From an uncultured Thermoproteaceae archaeon (GTDB taxonomy: Archaea > Thermoproteota > Thermoprotei > Thermoproteales > Thermocladiaceae): a stretch of DNA of 64,000 bases. A program made the position numbers and the translations under genes. The stretch is from contig CAZNTG010000015.1 in assembly GCA_964575955.1 (NCBI GenBank), positions 1-64,000 of the forward strand, written 5' to 3'. Positions within the stretch are counted from its first letter, which is position 1, and each line of letters begins with the position of its first letter. The notes under the pieces were generated by a model that did not search any database, was not told the origin of the DNA, and worked only from the letters and a program-made list of their open reading frames with translations. This document shows, in pieces, positions 1 to 51,941 of the stretch.

Positions 1-114
1 TTATTCATTTTATTCATTTTATTCATTTTATTCATTTTATTCATTTTATTCATTTTATTCATTTTATTCATTTTATTCATTTTATTCATTTTATTCATTT
101 TATTCATTTTATTC
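1..114. repeat. Perfect 9-bp tandem repeat (TTATTCATT)n, about 12.7 copies visible, runs off the window start
   Basis: Read directly: identical units with no spacers, ending at ...TTATTC (114). Confidence 0.97.
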
Positions 115-217: not shown

Positions 218-625
218 ATGTCTGAATCATTAAGCTCTGCAATAGATAGGGCTGTTAAGAGATTTATAGATATGTGCGGAGATCATGTAGAAGAGGTGGT
301 TATAACAAGACCTGATGGTTTGATAGTGTATGCATATGTTCCACCTGGTTCTAAGTATGATGCTAGAGGTATTGCAGCATTAGTATCGCTATTGATGGGT
401 TCTAGTAAGAGGATATATGGACAACTTAGGGGAGGCGATATAGATTCTGTAATAATTGATGGTAAGAGAGGTAAGATACTTATAAAGTATATAGACTTGG
501 ATGGATCTGGAGTATATGTTAGTGTCATAACACCTACTGACAATCCTGAACCTAATATCGGTCTAATACTATTAGCATTGGACAATCTTGGAAATAGGCT
601 AAAGGAGATATTTAAAGGTGTATAA
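218..625 (+). CDS. Roadblock/LC7 (MglB-like) domain protein, copy 1
   Basis: VVITRPDGLIV...IAALVS...SVIIDGKRGKILI...PNIGLILL matches the Roadblock pattern; ATG 218 preferred over GTG 194. Confidence 0.85.
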   Translation: MSESLSSAIDRAVKRFIDMCGDHVEEVVITRPDGLIVYAYVPPGSKYDARGIAALVSLLMGSSKRIYGQLRGGDIDSVIIDGKRGKILIKYIDLDGSGVYVSVITPTDNPEPNIGLILLALDNLGNRLKEIFKGV

Positions 626-644
626 CTATAAGACTGTATAGCGT

Positions 645-1118
645 ATGGTGAGTCGAGTGAGTACATTAATTCTCGGAAATATAATCGAAGCTCTTGTAGA
701 TCTAGTTGGCGAAGAAGCTGTTACAACAGTTATACGTGTAGCAATACAGAGAACAGCTGAAGAGCTTTTATCAATATATGGTGTCAAGTCTGGCGACTTG
801 AACACACTATCAAGAGAGTTGTCAGAAATTATGAAGAAAGAGCTAGATGTAGAATTGAAGGTTAACATTCAGGAGAATGGAAATAGGATAGTTCTTGAAA
901 TCGAAAATTGCAAATTTGGAACTTTGCAGAGCTTAATGCTTCAAAAGGTTTCAAATGTCTTAAAATCTCGAAAATTATGTATCCTAGCATTATTATGTCT
1001 ATCGCTAATCGAGAAAATTTTGGGTAAAAGGTACGACGTTGGTACTATAATATGCGAGAGTGGTAAAGCGAGAATAGAAATATTAAGTCCAGAACTATAT
1101 CTAGCGAGAGGATTTTGA
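645..1118 (+). CDS. V4R-like Cys-containing domain protein, copy 1
   Basis: Helical N-half, then LEIENCKF...KLCIL...IICESGKARIEI; three Cys spaced as in the V4R/MetOD1 fold. Confidence 0.6.
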   Translation: MVSRVSTLILGNIIEALVDLVGEEAVTTVIRVAIQRTAEELLSIYGVKSGDLNTLSRELSEIMKKELDVELKVNIQENGNRIVLEIENCKFGTLQSLMLQKVSNVLKSRKLCILALLCLSLIEKILGKRYDVGTIICESGKARIEILSPELYLARGF

Positions 1119-1194
1119 ACCCATATAGGTAACACTTCTAACCACTCAGTATAGAGATGTTAAGCTTAAAAATCTCGCATATGAACTTATCAAA

Positions 1195-1608
1195 ATGTCC
1201 CATACTGAACCTCTCTCAACTGTACTAGATAAGATTGTGAGAAAATTTGTAGATATGTGCGGTAAAGCTGTGCAAGATGTAGTAATAGCTAGGTCTGACG
1301 GACTAGTGGTGTATTCATATAGTACAAGCTTAAATCCAACGCAGAGAAGAAGCATAGCTGCACTAATCTCATTATTGATGGGTTCTAGCAAGAAGATATA
1401 TTCTCAATTGAGGGATGACGAACTTGTGAGTATAATAATGGAAGGTAGAAGAAGTAAAATAATATTGAAATCTATAACCTTACCATCAGGTAGAGACGTC
1501 TATGTTAGTGTGTTAGTCTCTTCGGTTGATGAAGGTGAGCCAAATATCGGATTAATATTGTTAATGTTAGATAATCTTGTAGAAAAGCTAAGAGAAGTAT
1601 TTAGGTGA
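1195..1608 (+). CDS. Roadblock/LC7 domain protein, copy 2
   Basis: VVIARSDGLVV, IAALISLLMGSS, EPNIGLILL; clear paralog of 218..625. Confidence 0.85.
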   Translation: MSHTEPLSTVLDKIVRKFVDMCGKAVQDVVIARSDGLVVYSYSTSLNPTQRRSIAALISLLMGSSKKIYSQLRDDELVSIIMEGRRSKIILKSITLPSGRDVYVSVLVSSVDEGEPNIGLILLMLDNLVEKLREVFR

Positions 1609-2090
1609 TTTATATGACAGTTGGAGAATATAAGATTGGTAGACTACTTTTAAAGAATATAGTTGAGAGTATTGCTAATTTAGCTGGAGAAGATGCATTA
1701 ACAACAATAATAGATATGGCTTCTCACAAAACTGCGTTAGAGCTTATGAAATTGAGTAATGTATCGTTAGAGAAGGTTTCTGATGTTAGAGAAGCTTTTG
1801 AGAAAGCATTTTCAATTCTTAGAAGATTTCTAAAGTTTAACATAGAGAAGATAGATATTCATAATGATGGTATTAGTATAAGTATTAGAGGATGCGAATG
1901 CATATTCTCAGTTCCTGAACTTAAAATTATGGATAATGTACGTAGTATGTTGAGAGCTAGAAAGTTATGTATATTAGTGTTAATGGCATGTTCAATAGTT
2001 GAGACATTGATAGGTCAGGTATATACTATTAAAGATATGAGATGTATTGAGGGTAATGCAGATATCGTATTAACGAGTAGCATCTTCTAA
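1605..2090 (+). CDS. V4R-like Cys-containing domain protein, copy 2
   Basis: ISIRGCECIF...RKLCIL...MRCIEGNADIVL; paralog of 645..1118; overlaps the Roadblock stop (GTGA). Confidence 0.6.
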   Translation: MIYMTVGEYKIGRLLLKNIVESIANLAGEDALTTIIDMASHKTALELMKLSNVSLEKVSDVREAFEKAFSILRRFLKFNIEKIDIHNDGISISIRGCECIFSVPELKIMDNVRSMLRARKLCILVLMACSIVETLIGQVYTIKDMRCIEGNADIVLTSSIF

Positions 2091-2091
2091 G

Positions 2092-4008
2092 CTACTTTCT
2101 AAGTAGTTTACTAACTTTTTCATATAAAATTTCTAATATATGCTCATCTGCATATATGCCAGATGGTGGATCTACAAGTTTTTTCAATCTTATAGGTATG
2201 CCATCTAGTCTGTATGCTGTTCCCTCACATTCAATTCCTGTTAATGCTACAGGTATTACAATATCAGCATATTTCAAAGTTTCACATACTTTAGGTGTTA
2301 GTAATATTACAGGTATCTTTTCAACATTCTTCATAACTTCTCCAGGAAATGATGCTGCTGGATCTGCACCTGCTACAAATAGTAGATCTGTCTCTCCTCT
2401 TCTCAGTATATCTACAGCTGTTGTTACTCCAGGTATGTATCTTGGATATCTTTTAGATAGATCAATACCGAATGGTGCTCCATAAGTCCATAGAAATACC
2501 ATATTCGCACCTGTAACGTTGAAGTGTCCTCTCATTGCTATTATTATAGCTTTTGTATGTTCATTAAGTTCTTGAATTATCTTTATTGCCTCTTCAATAT
2601 TCTTAAACTTACCACGACTATGTGTAAGTCCAACACCGAAGAATAGTATTACGTAGTTTGCTTTTCTTAAATCTTCACAGAATTTTTCAAATTCTTCAAC
2701 ACTTATTCCAGCGATATTATCCTTTTCAATTTCTAAATCTCTAAGACACATTCTAATACCTGTCAATATCTCATAGTCACGACCAGGTTTTACTATAAAT
2801 TGAGTATCTACATCTTTAACATACTCAATAGCATTTACAGGACATATACGTATACATAATCCACACTCTCTACACTTGGAGATGTCTACATCATAAGTCT
2901 TTAAACCAAGTTTACCAATTCTCTTTCTAATAACTTCAGGACAAGATTCAAAACACATGTCACAACCTGTACATCTTTTAAGATCTATACCTGTAGGTCT
3001 TTGTGGTGCTACATCTCTAACATCTATGATGTATACCTTTCTATCTCTCCTACCTTTAATGAGCTTACCCTCCCTATTTATAAATCTGTATGTGAAATTT
3101 GGATGTGCATGTGAAGGATTCCAACCCCAAAAAATTACTAGATCTGCATAATGTGTTGTAAATCCTAAAGTAAAATCACTATGTCCAGTCTCTGCAACAG
3201 CCATGAGTGTTGGTCCATGACATACAGATGATGTATTATCAACAACACCACCAACAAGTTCAGCAATTTTTAAACCAAGTCTAATAGCTTCACATGTAGT
3301 ACAACTCCAACCGTAGAATAGTGGATATCTAGAGTTTACTAGTAGATTAGCAATTTCATCAATAGCTCTCTCAAGATCTACCTCTACAAACTCACCATTC
3401 TCTCTTCTCTTAAGTGGTTTCAATACTCTATCTCTATGATAATTTACAAACTTAGCTCTACCTATAACACAACATTCTTCAACATCTATAATCTCTTCAC
3501 CACACATCTTAACTCTAACACCATCACACAATAATCCACAGAATGGACATACAGCTCTTAGAAACTTTATAGAACCTCTACGCACTACTCTATCTCCAAT
3601 TCCAGGAATATTCTTCAAAAATTGTAATTCTTTATCAACAATATCTTCCTGCTTATCAACTTTACATACTCTCACTCTAACCTGCTTGTAGTTTGGTGTT
3701 GCTGAAGCTTCAGTATATGGTGGTATTATCTTATTAATATATGATCCATATGGTACAAAGATAACACCTTCAGGACATGTATTATCAATTTTTACATACA
3801 TATCTACACAATTATCTTCTCTACATACATAAACAACATCACCATCTTTAACATCTATCTTCTCGGCATCTTTAGAATTTATATGTATAGTTTTGACACA
3901 TGTCACATATTCTCTAGAAAATCTACCAAAATTTTCAAGATAGTAACCCTGCTCTATAGATCTTCCTGTTGTTAATAGAATTTCAATACATCTATCAACT
4001 TTAGACAT
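2092..4008 (-). CDS. fwdB: Formylmethanofuran dehydrogenase FwdD-FwdB fusion with internal 2x[4Fe-4S] ferredoxin
   Basis: N-term LLTTGRSIEQG...PEGVIFVPYG (FwdD); CPFCGLLCD, SSVCHGPT, WGWNPSHAHP, MRGHFNVTG, GTAYRLDG (FwdB); two CxxCxxCxxxCP motifs inserted. Confidence 0.9.
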   Translation of the reverse strand: MSKVDRCIEILLTTGRSIEQGYYLENFGRFSREYVTCVKTIHINSKDAEKIDVKDGDVVYVCREDNCVDMYVKIDNTCPEGVIFVPYGSYINKIIPPYTEASATPNYKQVRVRVCKVDKQEDIVDKELQFLKNIPGIGDRVVRRGSIKFLRAVCPFCGLLCDGVRVKMCGEEIIDVEECCVIGRAKFVNYHRDRVLKPLKRRENGEFVEVDLERAIDEIANLLVNSRYPLFYGWSCTTCEAIRLGLKIAELVGGVVDNTSSVCHGPTLMAVAETGHSDFTLGFTTHYADLVIFWGWNPSHAHPNFTYRFINREGKLIKGRRDRKVYIIDVRDVAPQRPTGIDLKRCTGCDMCFESCPEVIRKRIGKLGLKTYDVDISKCRECGLCIRICPVNAIEYVKDVDTQFIVKPGRDYEILTGIRMCLRDLEIEKDNIAGISVEEFEKFCEDLRKANYVILFFGVGLTHSRGKFKNIEEAIKIIQELNEHTKAIIIAMRGHFNVTGANMVFLWTYGAPFGIDLSKRYPRYIPGVTTAVDILRRGETDLLFVAGADPAASFPGEVMKNVEKIPVILLTPKVCETLKYADIVIPVALTGIECEGTAYRLDGIPIRLKKLVDPPSGIYADEHILEILYEKVSKLLRK

Positions 4009-4016
4009 GGAAGTAC

Positions 4017-4853
4017 CTATGAAGGTTTTTCAATAAGTCTAATCTTTTTAAGTAGTTTACCATCACGTGAATGTGGTGTTCTTACAAGTTGATCATTATA
4101 CTTCTCAATTTCTCTAGCCTCATCTGCAAGTTTTGAAGCAATAAACATCATTTCATGAGCTGCGGATGCTATTAACGTATATTTTTCCCATTCCTTAATC
4201 TTAAAACATGCCTCTGTAGTTAGCTCAGCTACATGTCTAGCAATTTCATATGCTGCAATAGCTTTAGATAATGCATATGGATTTTTAATTTCCGAATATT
4301 CAATAACGTGATATTTATCAAATACTACTCTTGGAAGTTCTACCTTCTCACCACTCTTCAATTGTTCTACTACTCTATCAATATTCTTAACAATACATCT
4401 ATAAACTCCACATACAGTTAATACTTTTATAACGTATGTATTGTACATACACATCTCAGACATATCTAGAAATTCTCTTCTAGCACCAATCATAGAGTCT
4501 GCAAGAACTATTATATATCCATAACCATCCTCTTCAAGCTTCTTAACAATACTCTTAGCAGCTCCATCACTAATAACTATTATTGGTTTATTAGAACTTT
4601 TTAATAATTCTCTAATCTTTGTAGGTCCTGGAAGAGATGCATTTGGACTAACAACAATGTATAGATCATGATTATCTTCTAAAGCTCTCTTTGCAACTTT
4701 TTCACATAGATCTTCAATCATTTTTGAACCTGTTGAATATACAACAGTTCTAATATCTTCTCTATCAGCTCTCTCATCAAGTGCATATTCTAGAAGTACT
4801 GATGAGCCAATACATCCACATTTAACAACTCCAATACTAACTATCTTAGACAC
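4017..4853 (-). CDS. mtd: F420-dependent methylene-H4MPT dehydrogenase
   Basis: LDERADREDI, SPNASLPGP, DSMIGARREFLD, AAHEMM, DEAREIEK, RTPH are Mtd signatures. Confidence 0.93.
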   Translation of the reverse strand: MSKIVSIGVVKCGCIGSSVLLEYALDERADREDIRTVVYSTGSKMIEDLCEKVAKRALEDNHDLYIVVSPNASLPGPTKIRELLKSSNKPIIVISDGAAKSIVKKLEEDGYGYIIVLADSMIGARREFLDMSEMCMYNTYVIKVLTVCGVYRCIVKNIDRVVEQLKSGEKVELPRVVFDKYHVIEYSEIKNPYALSKAIAAYEIARHVAELTTEACFKIKEWEKYTLIASAAHEMMFIASKLADEAREIEKYNDQLVRTPHSRDGKLLKKIRLIEKPS

Positions 4854-5025
4854 CTAGTAGAGCTATTGTACAGATATTTAAGTTTAGGCATAGTTCTATA
4901 ACGATAGATTGTTAAGAAGATTATCAATATTGTAAAATTTGAGAAGAAATTTAGAGCGGTTAGGAATCCGAACTATTGCTATAAGGAGTGTAAAGTTTAA
5001 ATATGTAAAACACTTATTAAGTAAC

Positions 5026-6858
5026 ATGCCTTTTGTAGATATAGCAAATGAGGATATTAGAAAACTTGTTGAAGAAGCCGAAAGGAGAAATATAGATACA
5101 CCACATGTTAGAAGATTGAAAGTTTCTCAATGTAAGATTGGTAGAGAGGGATTATGTTGTAATGTATGTTCTGAAGGACCATGCATACTCTCTGAGAAGT
5201 ATCCATATGGTGTCTGTGGTCTAAATGTTCATCAAGTTGTAGCTAAAAATCTTCTTAGACATGTTGCTGCAGGTGTTGCATGTTATGTACATGTTTGTGA
5301 AAATACTGCTAGATCATTGTTAGAGTTAGACTATGTTAAAGATAGAGATAAGCTTGAGAAAGTATGTAAGATATTTAACATAGATGTTAATCATAAAAGA
5401 CTTGCTAAACTAGTTATCGAAGACATATATAGACCTAGATGGATTGAAAGTTTTATAGTTACTAAACTTGCATATAAGCCAAGACTTGAAGTATTTAGAA
5501 GATTAGGAATAGTTCCAGGCGGTGCAAAATCTGAGATTGTTGATGCACTAGTTAAGACATCTACAAACTTAAACGCTAATGTGATAGACATGCTCTTACA
5601 TGTATTGAAACTTGGACTTATCATGGGGTATGTCGCTCTTAGAATGAATACCTGGATGAATGATATAATACTTGGAACTCCAAAGGTTGAGATGTTAGAG
5701 TCAGGTATTGGTAAGATTGATCCAACATGTGTAAATATATTAACTACAGGACATCAGACAGTACTACAACAGGCAGTTATTGAGTATGCATCTTCAAGTG
5801 AAGCTCAGGAATTAGCTAAGAGAGCAGGTGCATCAGGTATAAATATTATAGGTGGTACATGTGTTGGTCAAGATATACAGTCAAGATGGACATATCTCAA
5901 AAATAGCTGTTTTATAGGTCAATGCGTTAATAATTTTGGAACAGAACCGTTAGTTGCTAGTGGACTTATTGATGCTGTTGTTTCAGAATTTAACTGTACA
6001 TTTCCGGGACTTACAAATATTTCAAAAATTACAGGAACAAAATTGATAGCTATTGACGATGTTGCATATATTGAAGATGCAACACTACTACAGTGGAGTC
6101 CTGAAAAAGCTAGAGAAATTGCTAAGAAAGTTGTTGAACTTGCAATTGAAGCTTTCAAATCTAGATCTAGAAGGTTAGAAAGGTTTGGAAAAGTTAAGAA
6201 AGCTGTAGTAGGATTTAGTGAAGATTATATAGAGAAGAATCTGCTAGATAGGTTACTACAGCTAATAGCTGACTGTAAGATTAGAGGTATTGTAGCTCTT
6301 GTAGGTTGTTCAAATTTGATAAGTAGAGGTCATGATGTTTTGATTAGAGATTTAGCAATTGAATTATTGAAGAGAAACATAATGATATGGACTGCAGGTT
6401 GTACATCATATGGTCTTCAAGGTCTTGGATTTATGAGTGAAGAAGCATTAAGATATGCTGGAGATGATCTACAAGATGCTTGTAGAGAATTGAACCTACC
6501 GCCAGTGTGGGATTTTGGATTATGTATGAGTATTTCAAGAATAGTATACATAGCTGAGAAGATATCTGAGAAGTTGAATGTTGACCTACCTGACTTACCT
6601 ATAGCTGTCTCAGCACCACAATGGCTTGAAGAACAGGCACTTGGAGATGCTGCATATGCATTAGCATGCGGCTTTCTACTTCATGTATATCCATCACCGT
6701 TCATAGATGGTTCAACAGTCGTCAAATCTATACTTACTGAAAAGCTTGTAGATATCACAGGTGGCAAACTATATATTGAGGATGATCCTGTGAAAGCTGC
6801 TGAAACTATTGAAAAACATATTAATGATAGAAGGAGGAGATTAAATTTAAAGACTTAA
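5026..6858 (+). CDS. cooS: CooS-type Ni,Fe CO dehydrogenase family protein (non-canonical active site)
   Basis: QCKIGREGLCCNVCSEGPC...VCG (D/B clusters), TGH, FNCT, VGCS, AGCT, GLC (C cluster); ATG 5026 preferred over TTG 4939. Confidence 0.88.
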   Translation: MPFVDIANEDIRKLVEEAERRNIDTPHVRRLKVSQCKIGREGLCCNVCSEGPCILSEKYPYGVCGLNVHQVVAKNLLRHVAAGVACYVHVCENTARSLLELDYVKDRDKLEKVCKIFNIDVNHKRLAKLVIEDIYRPRWIESFIVTKLAYKPRLEVFRRLGIVPGGAKSEIVDALVKTSTNLNANVIDMLLHVLKLGLIMGYVALRMNTWMNDIILGTPKVEMLESGIGKIDPTCVNILTTGHQTVLQQAVIEYASSSEAQELAKRAGASGINIIGGTCVGQDIQSRWTYLKNSCFIGQCVNNFGTEPLVASGLIDAVVSEFNCTFPGLTNISKITGTKLIAIDDVAYIEDATLLQWSPEKAREIAKKVVELAIEAFKSRSRRLERFGKVKKAVVGFSEDYIEKNLLDRLLQLIADCKIRGIVALVGCSNLISRGHDVLIRDLAIELLKRNIMIWTAGCTSYGLQGLGFMSEEALRYAGDDLQDACRELNLPPVWDFGLCMSISRIVYIAEKISEKLNVDLPDLPIAVSAPQWLEEQALGDAAYALACGFLLHVYPSPFIDGSTVVKSILTEKLVDITGGKLYIEDDPVKAAETIEKHINDRRRRLNLKT

Positions 6859-51014: not shown

Positions 51015-51067
51015 GTGATGAGGGATCCCAGAACTGAGAAATTGATGAAGGTCCCCGAGGACGCTGA
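51015..51067 (+). ncRNA. Box C/D guide sRNA
   Basis: C GTGATGA - GGGATCCCAGAA - D' CTGA - C' TTGATGA - AGGTCCCCGAGGACG - D CTGA. Confidence 0.85.
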
Positions 51068-51068
51068 T

Positions 51069-51941
51069 ATGATATTTAAGGTTGAGATACCTCTACACGT
51101 GTCAGGAATATGGACAATAGAGTGGCATAGAGATGAAGTAGAGTCAGGATCTAGAGGTGCAGGGTTAGTCCTCGAACCAACAGTTGAAGCATATGTAAAA
51201 TATCAAAATAACTACAATAATGAAGTGGTAATAAATGGAGAAAAAATAGAATTAAAAAACTTCAAAGTAATAGATAGATTAATAGAGAGTAGAAGTAGAT
51301 TTAGAATTGAAGTATTTGCAAAGGCAAGACTTGGATATGGATATGGACTAAGTGCAGCATTGTCAATAATATACTCACTATCTAAAAACATGTTTAAAGA
51401 TGTTGAAAAATGTCTAAAACTTGCACATATATCTGAAGTTAAGTGCTTAACAGGTCTTGGAGATGTCATTGCTGAAGTATATGGAGGTGATATAGAAGTT
51501 AGATTAAAATCGGGAGCACCAAAAATTGGGAAAATATGTAAAGTAGTGTTGAGAAAGAAGATTAAGGTTCTAATTACAGAGCTTGAAAAATATTATGAAG
51601 ATACTAGAGAGATGTTGATGTATAGATTTGAGAGAATTAAGAAGTATGGATTAAAATTTCTGAATATGTTTATTAAGAATCCAGATATTGAAAATTATAT
51701 ATACACATCATACCTATTCTCTAAAAGTATTGGATATATTAGAGATGATATTGAGAATTTCTTAAGAAGTTATAAGAGGTATTATGTAGGTTTTTATATT
51801 AAGAAGAGACTTTTAGTAGTAATTCCTGAGAAGGATTTTGAACTTGATATTAAACAATTACTTTACTCTAAATTTGGTAATTGTAAGGTATTCTATACTA
51901 CTAGTAATGGATTGAGAATAGTTAGCCAAGGCTTCCTCTAA
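51069..51941 (+). CDS. Pantoate kinase (GHMP family)
   Basis: PLHVSG, GSRGAG, LGYGYGLSAA, AHISEV..LTGLGDV, GAP; ATG 51069 directly after the sRNA. Confidence 0.85.
   Translation: MIFKVEIPLHVSGIWTIEWHRDEVESGSRGAGLVLEPTVEAYVKYQNNYNNEVVINGEKIELKNFKVIDRLIESRSRFRIEVFAKARLGYGYGLSAALSIIYSLSKNMFKDVEKCLKLAHISEVKCLTGLGDVIAEVYGGDIEVRLKSGAPKIGKICKVVLRKKIKVLITELEKYYEDTREMLMYRFERIKKYGLKFLNMFIKNPDIENYIYTSYLFSKSIGYIRDDIENFLRSYKRYYVGFYIKKRLLVVIPEKDFELDIKQLLYSKFGNCKVFYTTSNGLRIVSQGFL

Follow-up and report, generated by a model that had tools for sequence, protein, structure and literature searches.

Proteins of the Roadblock/LC7 family are generally taken to regulate small GTPases, and V4R is presumed to be the domain from which the TRAPP subunit Bet3 descends. 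The subject of this report is a two-gene unit in which a Roadblock/LC7 gene is followed by the gene for a cysteine (Cys)-bearing protein of about 160 residues, here called the partner, that is likely a remote relative of V4R. Three such pairs lie in a 64,000-nucleotide (nt) stretch of DNA from an uncultured member of the Thermoproteota, positions 1 to 64000 of contig CAZNTG010000015.1 (G000:C15), which we refer to as the window. The assembly to which the contig belongs, G000, has 1.52 Mb in 15 contigs and is 94.7% complete; the link of the source organism to vents is the presence of its DNA in a hydrothermal-vent metagenome.

The MglA/MglB system of Myxococcus and Thermus resembles the pairs in that a small single-domain PF03259 protein shares a short operon with the protein presumed to be its partner, but the pairs have no adjacent or detectable GTPase of the MglA/Ras/Arf type, and their operon partner is a V4R-like Cys protein. 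Orphan MglB homologues make up 328 of 749 in PMC4316618 and are described there as uncharacterized, none of the many orphan archaeal Roadblock proteins having been characterized as of that paper. Here, a Roadblock protein is accompanied by a fixed, co-duplicating and probably V4R-type partner in a genome with no detectable small GTPase. The Streptomyces conservon (CvnA-D) is likewise a multi-copy signaling operon built around a Roadblock protein, and CvnB5 (3leq) is among the three best PDB matches of our Roadblock profile. Conservons also include a sensor-kinase-like CvnA, CvnC, and the GTPase CvnD, whereas the pairs described here are accompanied by no counterpart of CvnA, CvnC, or CvnD.

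On the side of the partner, V4R domains (PF02830; the PoxR/MopR/XylR phenol sensors and Thor-TRAPPC3/Bet3) align co-linearly over about 130 columns with matched Cys positions, and archaeal V4R proteins are, like the partners, stand-alone and about 160 residues long. The E-x-x-C-x3-G-x3-C-x-F signature, however, which the nine canonical V4R proteins aligned share without exception, is missing from the partners, and they have an invariant N-C-x-F Cys instead; the likeness is one of sequence. Proteins of family PF27323 have the same C...PxC...E...C pattern as the partners, but the Methanopyri and bacterial members are unpaired, one bacterial member carries an N-terminal C-x-x-C extension, and the three partners in the window have no precomputed PF27323 annotation. 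The TRAPP core and Ragulator combine Bet3/V4R-type and Roadblock/longin-type subunits, the longin and Roadblock folds being related, and the presumed complex of the pairs resembles them in this combination; it is a resemblance only, and the GTPase substrate and membrane link of those assemblies are absent here. The relation of Bet3 to V4R is described in PMC2253512 and PMC10933270.

None of the kinds of protein involved is new, orphan Roadblock proteins, V4R sensors, and PF27323 being known already. New with respect to the literature searched are the fixed, co-duplicating pairing of a Roadblock with a PF27323-type protein, its five-fold multiplication, and its presence in a genome with no detectable small GTPase. 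No described Roadblock-V4R pairing was found in that literature, though supplementary arCOG neighborhood tables could hold one.

The Roadblock-partner pairs and their descent

A preliminary description of this DNA had reported the same ordered pair at three places in the window, and the listing of open reading frames (ORFs) agrees with it. In pair A (orthogroup A), a Roadblock/LC7 gene at 218-625 on the plus strand (135 residues; PF03259 E 2e-7, 31.1 bits), whose orthologues share an identical MSESLSS start, is followed on the same strand by the gene for a PF27323-type V4R-like Cys protein at 645-1118 (157 residues, with Cys at C89, C112, C121, and C137). Pair B, also on the plus strand, has its Roadblock/LC7 gene at 1195-1608 (137 residues; PF03259 E 1.1e-8, 35.2 bits; 53% identity to Roadblock A) and its partner gene at 1614-2090. 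The ORF of partner B opens also at GTG 1605, but ATG 1614, which gives 158 residues, is the more likely start because the orthologues begin at the equivalent Met. Pair C is on the minus strand, with the Roadblock/LC7 gene at 50942-50526 (138 residues; PF03259 E 7.1e-7, 29.3 bits) and the partner gene at 50512-50030, the latter encoding 160 residues with five Cys in the arrangement C-x-F-x-x-L-C-x-C ... RPC ... C-x-x-G. Whole-genome searches added two further pairs, at G000:C5:10464-11368 and G000:C6:186472-187388, for a total of five.

The assignment of the first gene of each pair to the Roadblock family also stands. All three window copies pass the PF03259 gathering cut-off of 23 bits; the fourth copy scores 25.6 bits against the same model, and the fifth (C6) was detected by the family-specific profile only. 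In a sequence search of the PDB, the best matches of the Roadblock profile are themselves Roadblock proteins, namely, 9jue_D (2.5e-9), 7f8m_A, and 3leq_A (CvnB5, 5.1e-8). The motifs quoted earlier are all present: the Roadblocks have FIDMC/FVDMC/FVSRC, GSSxxI, and NxGLILL, and the partners have C-x-F...C...C-x-x-G. The paralogy proposed for the pairs is confirmed by BLASTP (Roadblock A-C, E 1e-34; partner A-B, E 2e-22; partner A-C, E 2e-11). The window copies are true paralogues, with a similarity far beyond chance. Searching the window pair proteins against NCBIfam gave chance-level matches only.

Each of the five partner genes in G000 sits immediately downstream of a Roadblock gene, the junctions between the two measuring -4 to +19 nt, and the unit is a two-gene operon whose products are probably co-translated.

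The nature of the partner was approached by profile comparison. Aligned against 15 PF27323 proteins (about 145 residues long, mostly from Methanopyrus and from Methanopyri metagenome-assembled genomes [MAGs], all 15 with a precomputed PF27323 annotation), the partners gave an hhalign Prob of 98.2% (E 3.5e-14), and the five-copy partner profile reaches three PF27323 proteins at E 1.6e-4 to 4.8e-4 in a search of 1.84e9 proteins. Precomputed PF27323 annotations are carried by 4 of the 17 members of the partner family (P0003, P0012, P0016, and P0017), among them the contig-5 copy of G000, and are found on the nearest named ESM Atlas clusters of partner C. These comparisons indicate that the partner is clearly homologous to PF27323, which Pfam 38.1 names RdxA_C, “putative rubredoxin C-terminal domain”; a literature search on the accession and the name found no paper on the family.

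A more distant relation links the partner to V4R. Against canonical stand-alone V4R proteins of other Thermoproteota, the partners gave weak hhalign Prob values of 86.8% (E 4.8e-7, global), 56.5%, and 56.3% (E 1.1e-4), and the PF27323 set itself gave 61.4%. The partner-V4R alignments are co-linear across 127-138 columns and place two of the three conserved Cys on V4R Cys, the RPC/KLC Cys on that of V4R “p-x-C” and the C-x-x-G Cys on that of V4R “E-x-x-C”; in groups D and F, the last partner Cys is instead at the position of the final V4R Cys. Every partner has four or five Cys. Three of these occupy positions that are invariant or that alternate between equivalent sites, and the fourth lies five residues beyond the first or else belongs to the helix that follows R-P-C. 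Below threshold, Pfam searches matched the partners to ATC_hydrolase (E 0.0077-0.058) and MetOD1; none of the three window partners has a Pfam or NCBIfam match above cut-off, and the E of 0.0077 is that of partner A. In Galperin et al. (2018; PMC5847659), V4R, H-NOX, MetOD1, and ATC_hydrolase are related through a common three-Cys cluster, and Tran et al. (PMC10933270) describe four Cys that bind Zn in Thor-TRAPPC3, a comparable site in PoxR, and a shift of the ligand positions among homologues. We consider it likely that the partner is a remote member of the V4R superfamily, of the PF27323 type.

The partner family is extremely rare. Among 1.84 billion proteins, the five-copy profile found 13 cluster representatives, including three distant PF27323 proteins and one repeat protein, and in a collection of 5.8 billion it found 17 proteins, the few source names reading “MAG: hypothetical protein [Crenarchaeota archaeon].” In 41 related genomes, the family is present in four of the seven from its own genus and in none of the 34 from the other genera of the order. 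The matching Roadblock subfamily occurs in the same four genomes, and the remaining three congeners (82-87% complete) have neither gene. A metagenome scan with the Roadblock alignment found no relative.

The four genomes with the family hold 17 distinct pairs in six orthogroups (A-F), five of which are represented in G000. The identity-distance matrices of the 17 Roadblocks and the 17 partners are correlated with a Mantel r of 0.94, a value dominated by the orthologue groups and equaled in 0 of 5000 permutations. In maximum-likelihood analysis, orthogroups A and B are grouped at 99/97 in both the Roadblock tree and the partner tree, partner B being sister to or nested with partner A at that support, and the grouping of D with F has a support of 99/97 for the Roadblocks and 81/82 for the partners. 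The two trees agree, and the pairs were therefore duplicated as units. The Roadblocks of the genus form one clade (92/96) separate from those of neighboring genera, and the trees as a whole indicate that the pairs are a lineage-specific expansion of one ancestral pair.

Both genes of the pair are under strong purifying selection. Between G000 and G004, all eight genes compared have a nonsynonymous divergence (pN) of 0.09-0.34 against a saturated synonymous divergence (pS) of 0.71-0.91; for Roadblock A and its G004 orthologue, the values are 0.094 and 0.727. In each pair compared, the partner diverges faster than its Roadblock.

GTPases and V4R-Roadblock partnerships elsewhere

No Ras/Arf/MglA-type small GTPase was detected in the 94.7%-complete G000. 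Searching the genome with the Ras model matched only NOG1-type and FeoB-type GTPases, the Arf model gave nothing above cut-off, and the GTPase of the G047 operon described below has no homologue there (best E 0.15). These results make unlikely the earlier suggestion that the pairs feed one shared GTPase encoded elsewhere. The companion statement holds for all five pairs: none is adjoined by a gene for a GTPase, KaiC, or a kinase, the neighboring ORFs having been partly scanned with Pfam and otherwise judged by eye. KaiC-like ATPases are encoded in the genome, with ten PF06745 matches of which at least four are strong, the nearest about 16 kb from any pair.

Canonical V4R proteins are found next to Roadblock proteins in two other families of the Thermoproteota. 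At L114 (G047:C11:594-3110) and L115 (G044:C10:1-2626), co-oriented genes encode a ParA/MinD-like ATPase, a V4R protein of 260-270 residues, a Roadblock, and an Arf/Ras-like small GTPase, the G044 version having one additional Roadblock. We found no description of this operon in the literature searched. As in the pairs of G000, the V4R-superfamily and Roadblock genes are adjacent and co-oriented, but the V4R here is canonical and fused to an N-terminal domain, and the pairs differ from these operons in lacking both nucleoside triphosphatases (NTPases), in having a PF27323-type partner, and in being multiplied five-fold. A further locus, on G044:C4, has the order Roadblock-V4R-V4R. In a sample of 121 genomes of the phylum, Roadblock was found in 20 and V4R in 58, and, judged by coordinates, three Roadblock hits of the 27 outside G000 (at G047:C11, G044:C10, and G044:C4) have a PF02830 match less than 1 kb away. 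Within the order of G000, canonical V4R was found in none of 12 genomes, drawn from the two families scored in that search. The G047 and G044 operons support a general V4R-Roadblock partnership, and the comparison suggests that V4R and Roadblock form a conserved core to which the GTPase is an optional addition.

Closer to G000, in a sister family, a V4R-like protein of about 150 residues follows the Roadblock at all three Roadblock loci examined (L039, L040, and L044, in G040, G031, and G039). It has lost the Cys, aligns to canonical V4R with an hhalign Prob of 96.3%, and has a weak XylR_N match that is above cut-off in one of the three. The same loci have, close by, another Roadblock-like ORF and the gene for a C-x-x-C protein of some 113-125 residues. 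Elsewhere, Roadblock and PF27323 genes occur in other company. At L041, L042, L045, L050, and L062, all in a neighboring genus, the Roadblock has a gene for an ArsR-type helix-turn-helix protein of about 204 residues immediately upstream and a UPF0047 gene downstream, a conserved context assigned by Pfam scan on the L041 copies and matched by eye at the other four loci. A scan of genome contigs with the PF27323 set found five loci, none with a Roadblock neighbor, and six Roadblock-hit loci in three Methanopyri-type genomes had no neighbor matching the partner, PF27323, or V4R profiles. In Methanopyri-type MAGs (L103-L106), the PF27323 gene has a conserved place, with no Roadblock near it, between an ORF of about 450 residues (SRP54-like) and one of about 285 residues (GHMP-kinase-like), the likenesses being judged by eye.

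A possible sensor-adaptor complex and its alternatives

We tentatively favor a reading in which the pairs would be cognate heteromeric sensor-adaptor complexes for a ligand or for redox state that are now independent of a GTPase; it is possible rather than probable. The two products of each operon would form a cognate heteromer. The partner would be a divergent V4R/H-NOX-like (PF27323-type) subunit with a small ligand or the redox state as its signal. Its three invariant-position Cys would form a metal site completed by one more residue, Cys or Glu, and the metal would most likely be Zn, as it is in PoxR/MopR and Thor-TRAPPC3. Bound there, it would link the beta-sheet with a helix and give form to a pocket for small molecules. 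Dimerization and output would fall to the Roadblock/LC7 subunit as the platform contacting a target, with output probably through ligand- or redox-dependent protein-protein contacts. The pair arose a single time, within a subclade of an uncultured genus of vent Thermoproteota, and was then duplicated as a unit into six orthogroups, the paralogues presumably differing in ligand or partner specificity. The small GTPase seen with V4R and Roadblock elsewhere would have been lost from this genus or never acquired, and the module would act without one, since no Ras/Arf/MglA-type GTPase was detected in the genome.

A number of results weigh against these proposals. The V4R link of the partner is weak. 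The preliminary description had called the partners V4R-like, and what stands of this is a remote kinship at the level of profiles (hhalign 86.8%/56% with Cys aligned, and 98.2% to PF27323); the PF02830 model itself had no match at E <= 1 in any of the six plus two partners searched, and PDB sequence searches with partner profiles gave chance-level matches only. In the whole of G000, the best PF02830 match has an E of 0.11 and is in an unrelated ORF. The association of V4R with Roadblock is recurrent rather than general, because a Roadblock within 1.5 kb was found at just 1 of 30 V4R loci retrieved, and the Methanopyri relatives in PF27323 are unpaired. Nor is the partner strictly Roadblock-dependent, since six partner genes stand alone, with no Roadblock, in related genomes; the unpaired partner group G is sister to the paired group E in the partner tree (86/72). 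The counts of co-duplication are not independent, because the four genomes that furnish all known members of the family are incomplete and closely related to one another. A search for longer forms of the partner found no Roadblock-partner fusion, which is weak evidence. The neighbors differ for each pair, and no output component was identified among them. Finally, a GTPase could sit in the unassembled part of the genome, which is 94.7% complete.

In one alternative, the pairs would regulate, as orphans, an NTPase whose gene lies elsewhere. The Roadblock would act on it as a platform like that of GTPase-activating proteins or guanine-nucleotide exchange factors (GAP/GEF-like), and the V4R-like subunit would gate it. 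The candidates would be a GTPase in the unassembled ~5%, a NOG1-, FeoB-, or GPN-type GTPase, or a KaiC-like ATPase. The operons of G047 and G044, in which V4R and Roadblock are accompanied by an Arf/Ras-like GTPase and a ParA-like ATPase, speak for this arrangement, as do the strong KaiC-like genes of G000 (four or more) and the high frequency of orphan MglB homologues given above. We nonetheless regard it as unlikely, given that no Ras/Arf-type small GTPase was detected even with the G047 GTPase as query, that the closest KaiC-like gene is some 16 kb from any pair, and that one hub fed by five pairs would be unusual. More doubtful is the possibility that the two genes are co-transcribed and their products form no complex, the partner being an enzyme (e.g., an ATC-hydrolase-like C-S hydrolase) or the Roadblock acting alone. 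The weak ATC_hydrolase matches and the existence of unpaired partner copies are compatible with this, and an enzymatic role is raised for the related MetOD1 by Galperin et al. (PMC5847659). Those matches, however, are far below cut-off, the pairs have no conserved metabolic neighbor, and co-duplication across six orthogroups together with the tight junctions argues for a joint function, so that this account seems improbable.

There is also the question of whether the Cys are working parts, with the partner a thiol/metal redox or metal (Zn, Fe-S) sensor or carrier to which the Roadblock Cys might contribute a ligand or an inter-subunit disulfide. The Cys in question is that of F-x-x-x-C, at the end of Roadblock helix 1, which is kept in five of the six orthogroups and replaced by Val or Ala both in neighboring genera and in V4R-linked Roadblocks elsewhere. 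This pattern favors a role for it, as do the four or five Cys of each partner, three of them positionally conserved, and the setting of the organism, with its vent-metagenome occurrence and its CooS and Fwd-type enzymes. But paralogue E has Tyr at the Roadblock position, the partners have no CxxC-type Fe-S motif, and the equivalent site in solved V4R/TRAPPC3 relatives is a structural Zn (PMC10933270). The stand-alone partners, moreover, retain all of their Cys, and the putative metal site is therefore probably internal to the partner. We consider working Cys of this kind quite unlikely, and the Roadblock Cys may be merely a retained ancestral residue. The F-x-x-x-C motif earlier described as unusual and shared by the Roadblocks is indeed in all of the window copies; the Tyr of one paralogue and the Cys kept by stand-alone partners would fit a residue that was simply retained.

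A broader proposal can be framed, although it is speculative and on balance doubtful: the Roadblock-V4R/Bet3 combination would be an ancient and general archaeal heterocomplex, functional alone as a ligand-gated switch and a minimal “proto-TRAPP/Ragulator” platform, to which GTPases and ParA- or KaiC-like NTPases were added in some lineages while being dispensable in others. The genus studied here, which has five to six paralogous pairs and no small GTPase detected, would then represent the natural GTPase-free state. The proteins are small, thermostable, and co-expressible, and the five paralogous pairs provide built-in controls of cognate versus non-cognate combinations. Should the members of a pair not bind each other, the finding would be a lineage-specific expansion of two small protein families.

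Gene neighborhoods

Pairs A and B adjoin FwdB/D-like, Mtd, and CooS genes. The preliminary description had drawn attention to this, and the tandem pair does border the cluster; a functional tie between the two was considered and rejected. Pairs A and B are convergent with fwdBD, an arrangement also found in G001 and G004; Mtd is present in all seven genomes of the genus, compared to four for the pair; and two of the congeners that lack the pair have no copy of it in their fwd-mtd regions. The adjacency looks incidental, because neighbors vary from pair to pair. The cluster itself, at 2092-6858 of the window, encodes a molybdopterin-oxidoreductase-type (FwdB/D-like) protein of 638 residues with an inserted 2x[4Fe-4S] ferredoxin domain, and it also holds the Mtd gene and the gene for a CooS-type CO dehydrogenase.

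Pair C is flanked on one side by the gene for an NAD(P)HX repair enzyme and on the other by an unassigned ORF, followed by an archaeal phosphoenolpyruvate carboxylase gene. Divergent from pair C, at 51015-51941, is an ORF of 308 residues with no Pfam match at E <= 1e-5, whose position is kept in G004. Pair D lies between genes for a xylose-isomerase-like TIM-barrel protein and a class-III aminotransferase, and pair E is surrounded by small unassigned ORFs, with an HhH-GPD glycosylase gene nearby. The three loci of the unpaired group G (L027, G004:C57; L017, G002:C38; and L028, G001:C100) adjoin an ORF that by eye resembles the small subunit of carbamoyl-phosphate synthase, and two of the three also adjoin an ORF resembling a nitrogenase-component-1-type oxidoreductase, again by eye.

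A role in anti-phage defense was also considered and rejected, no PADLOC model having matched: all ten proteins of the five pairs returned 0 families. Upstream of the five pairs, no common motif was seen by eye, no formal motif search having been made. Upstream of pair A, the contig extends for only 217 nt; the genes found upstream in a congener resemble ABC-transporter genes (by eye, with no family scan). At the contig start (window 1-57), immediately before the pair A promoter region, are about six tandem copies of the 9-mer TTCATTTTA, and these repeats may be the reason for the assembly break there.

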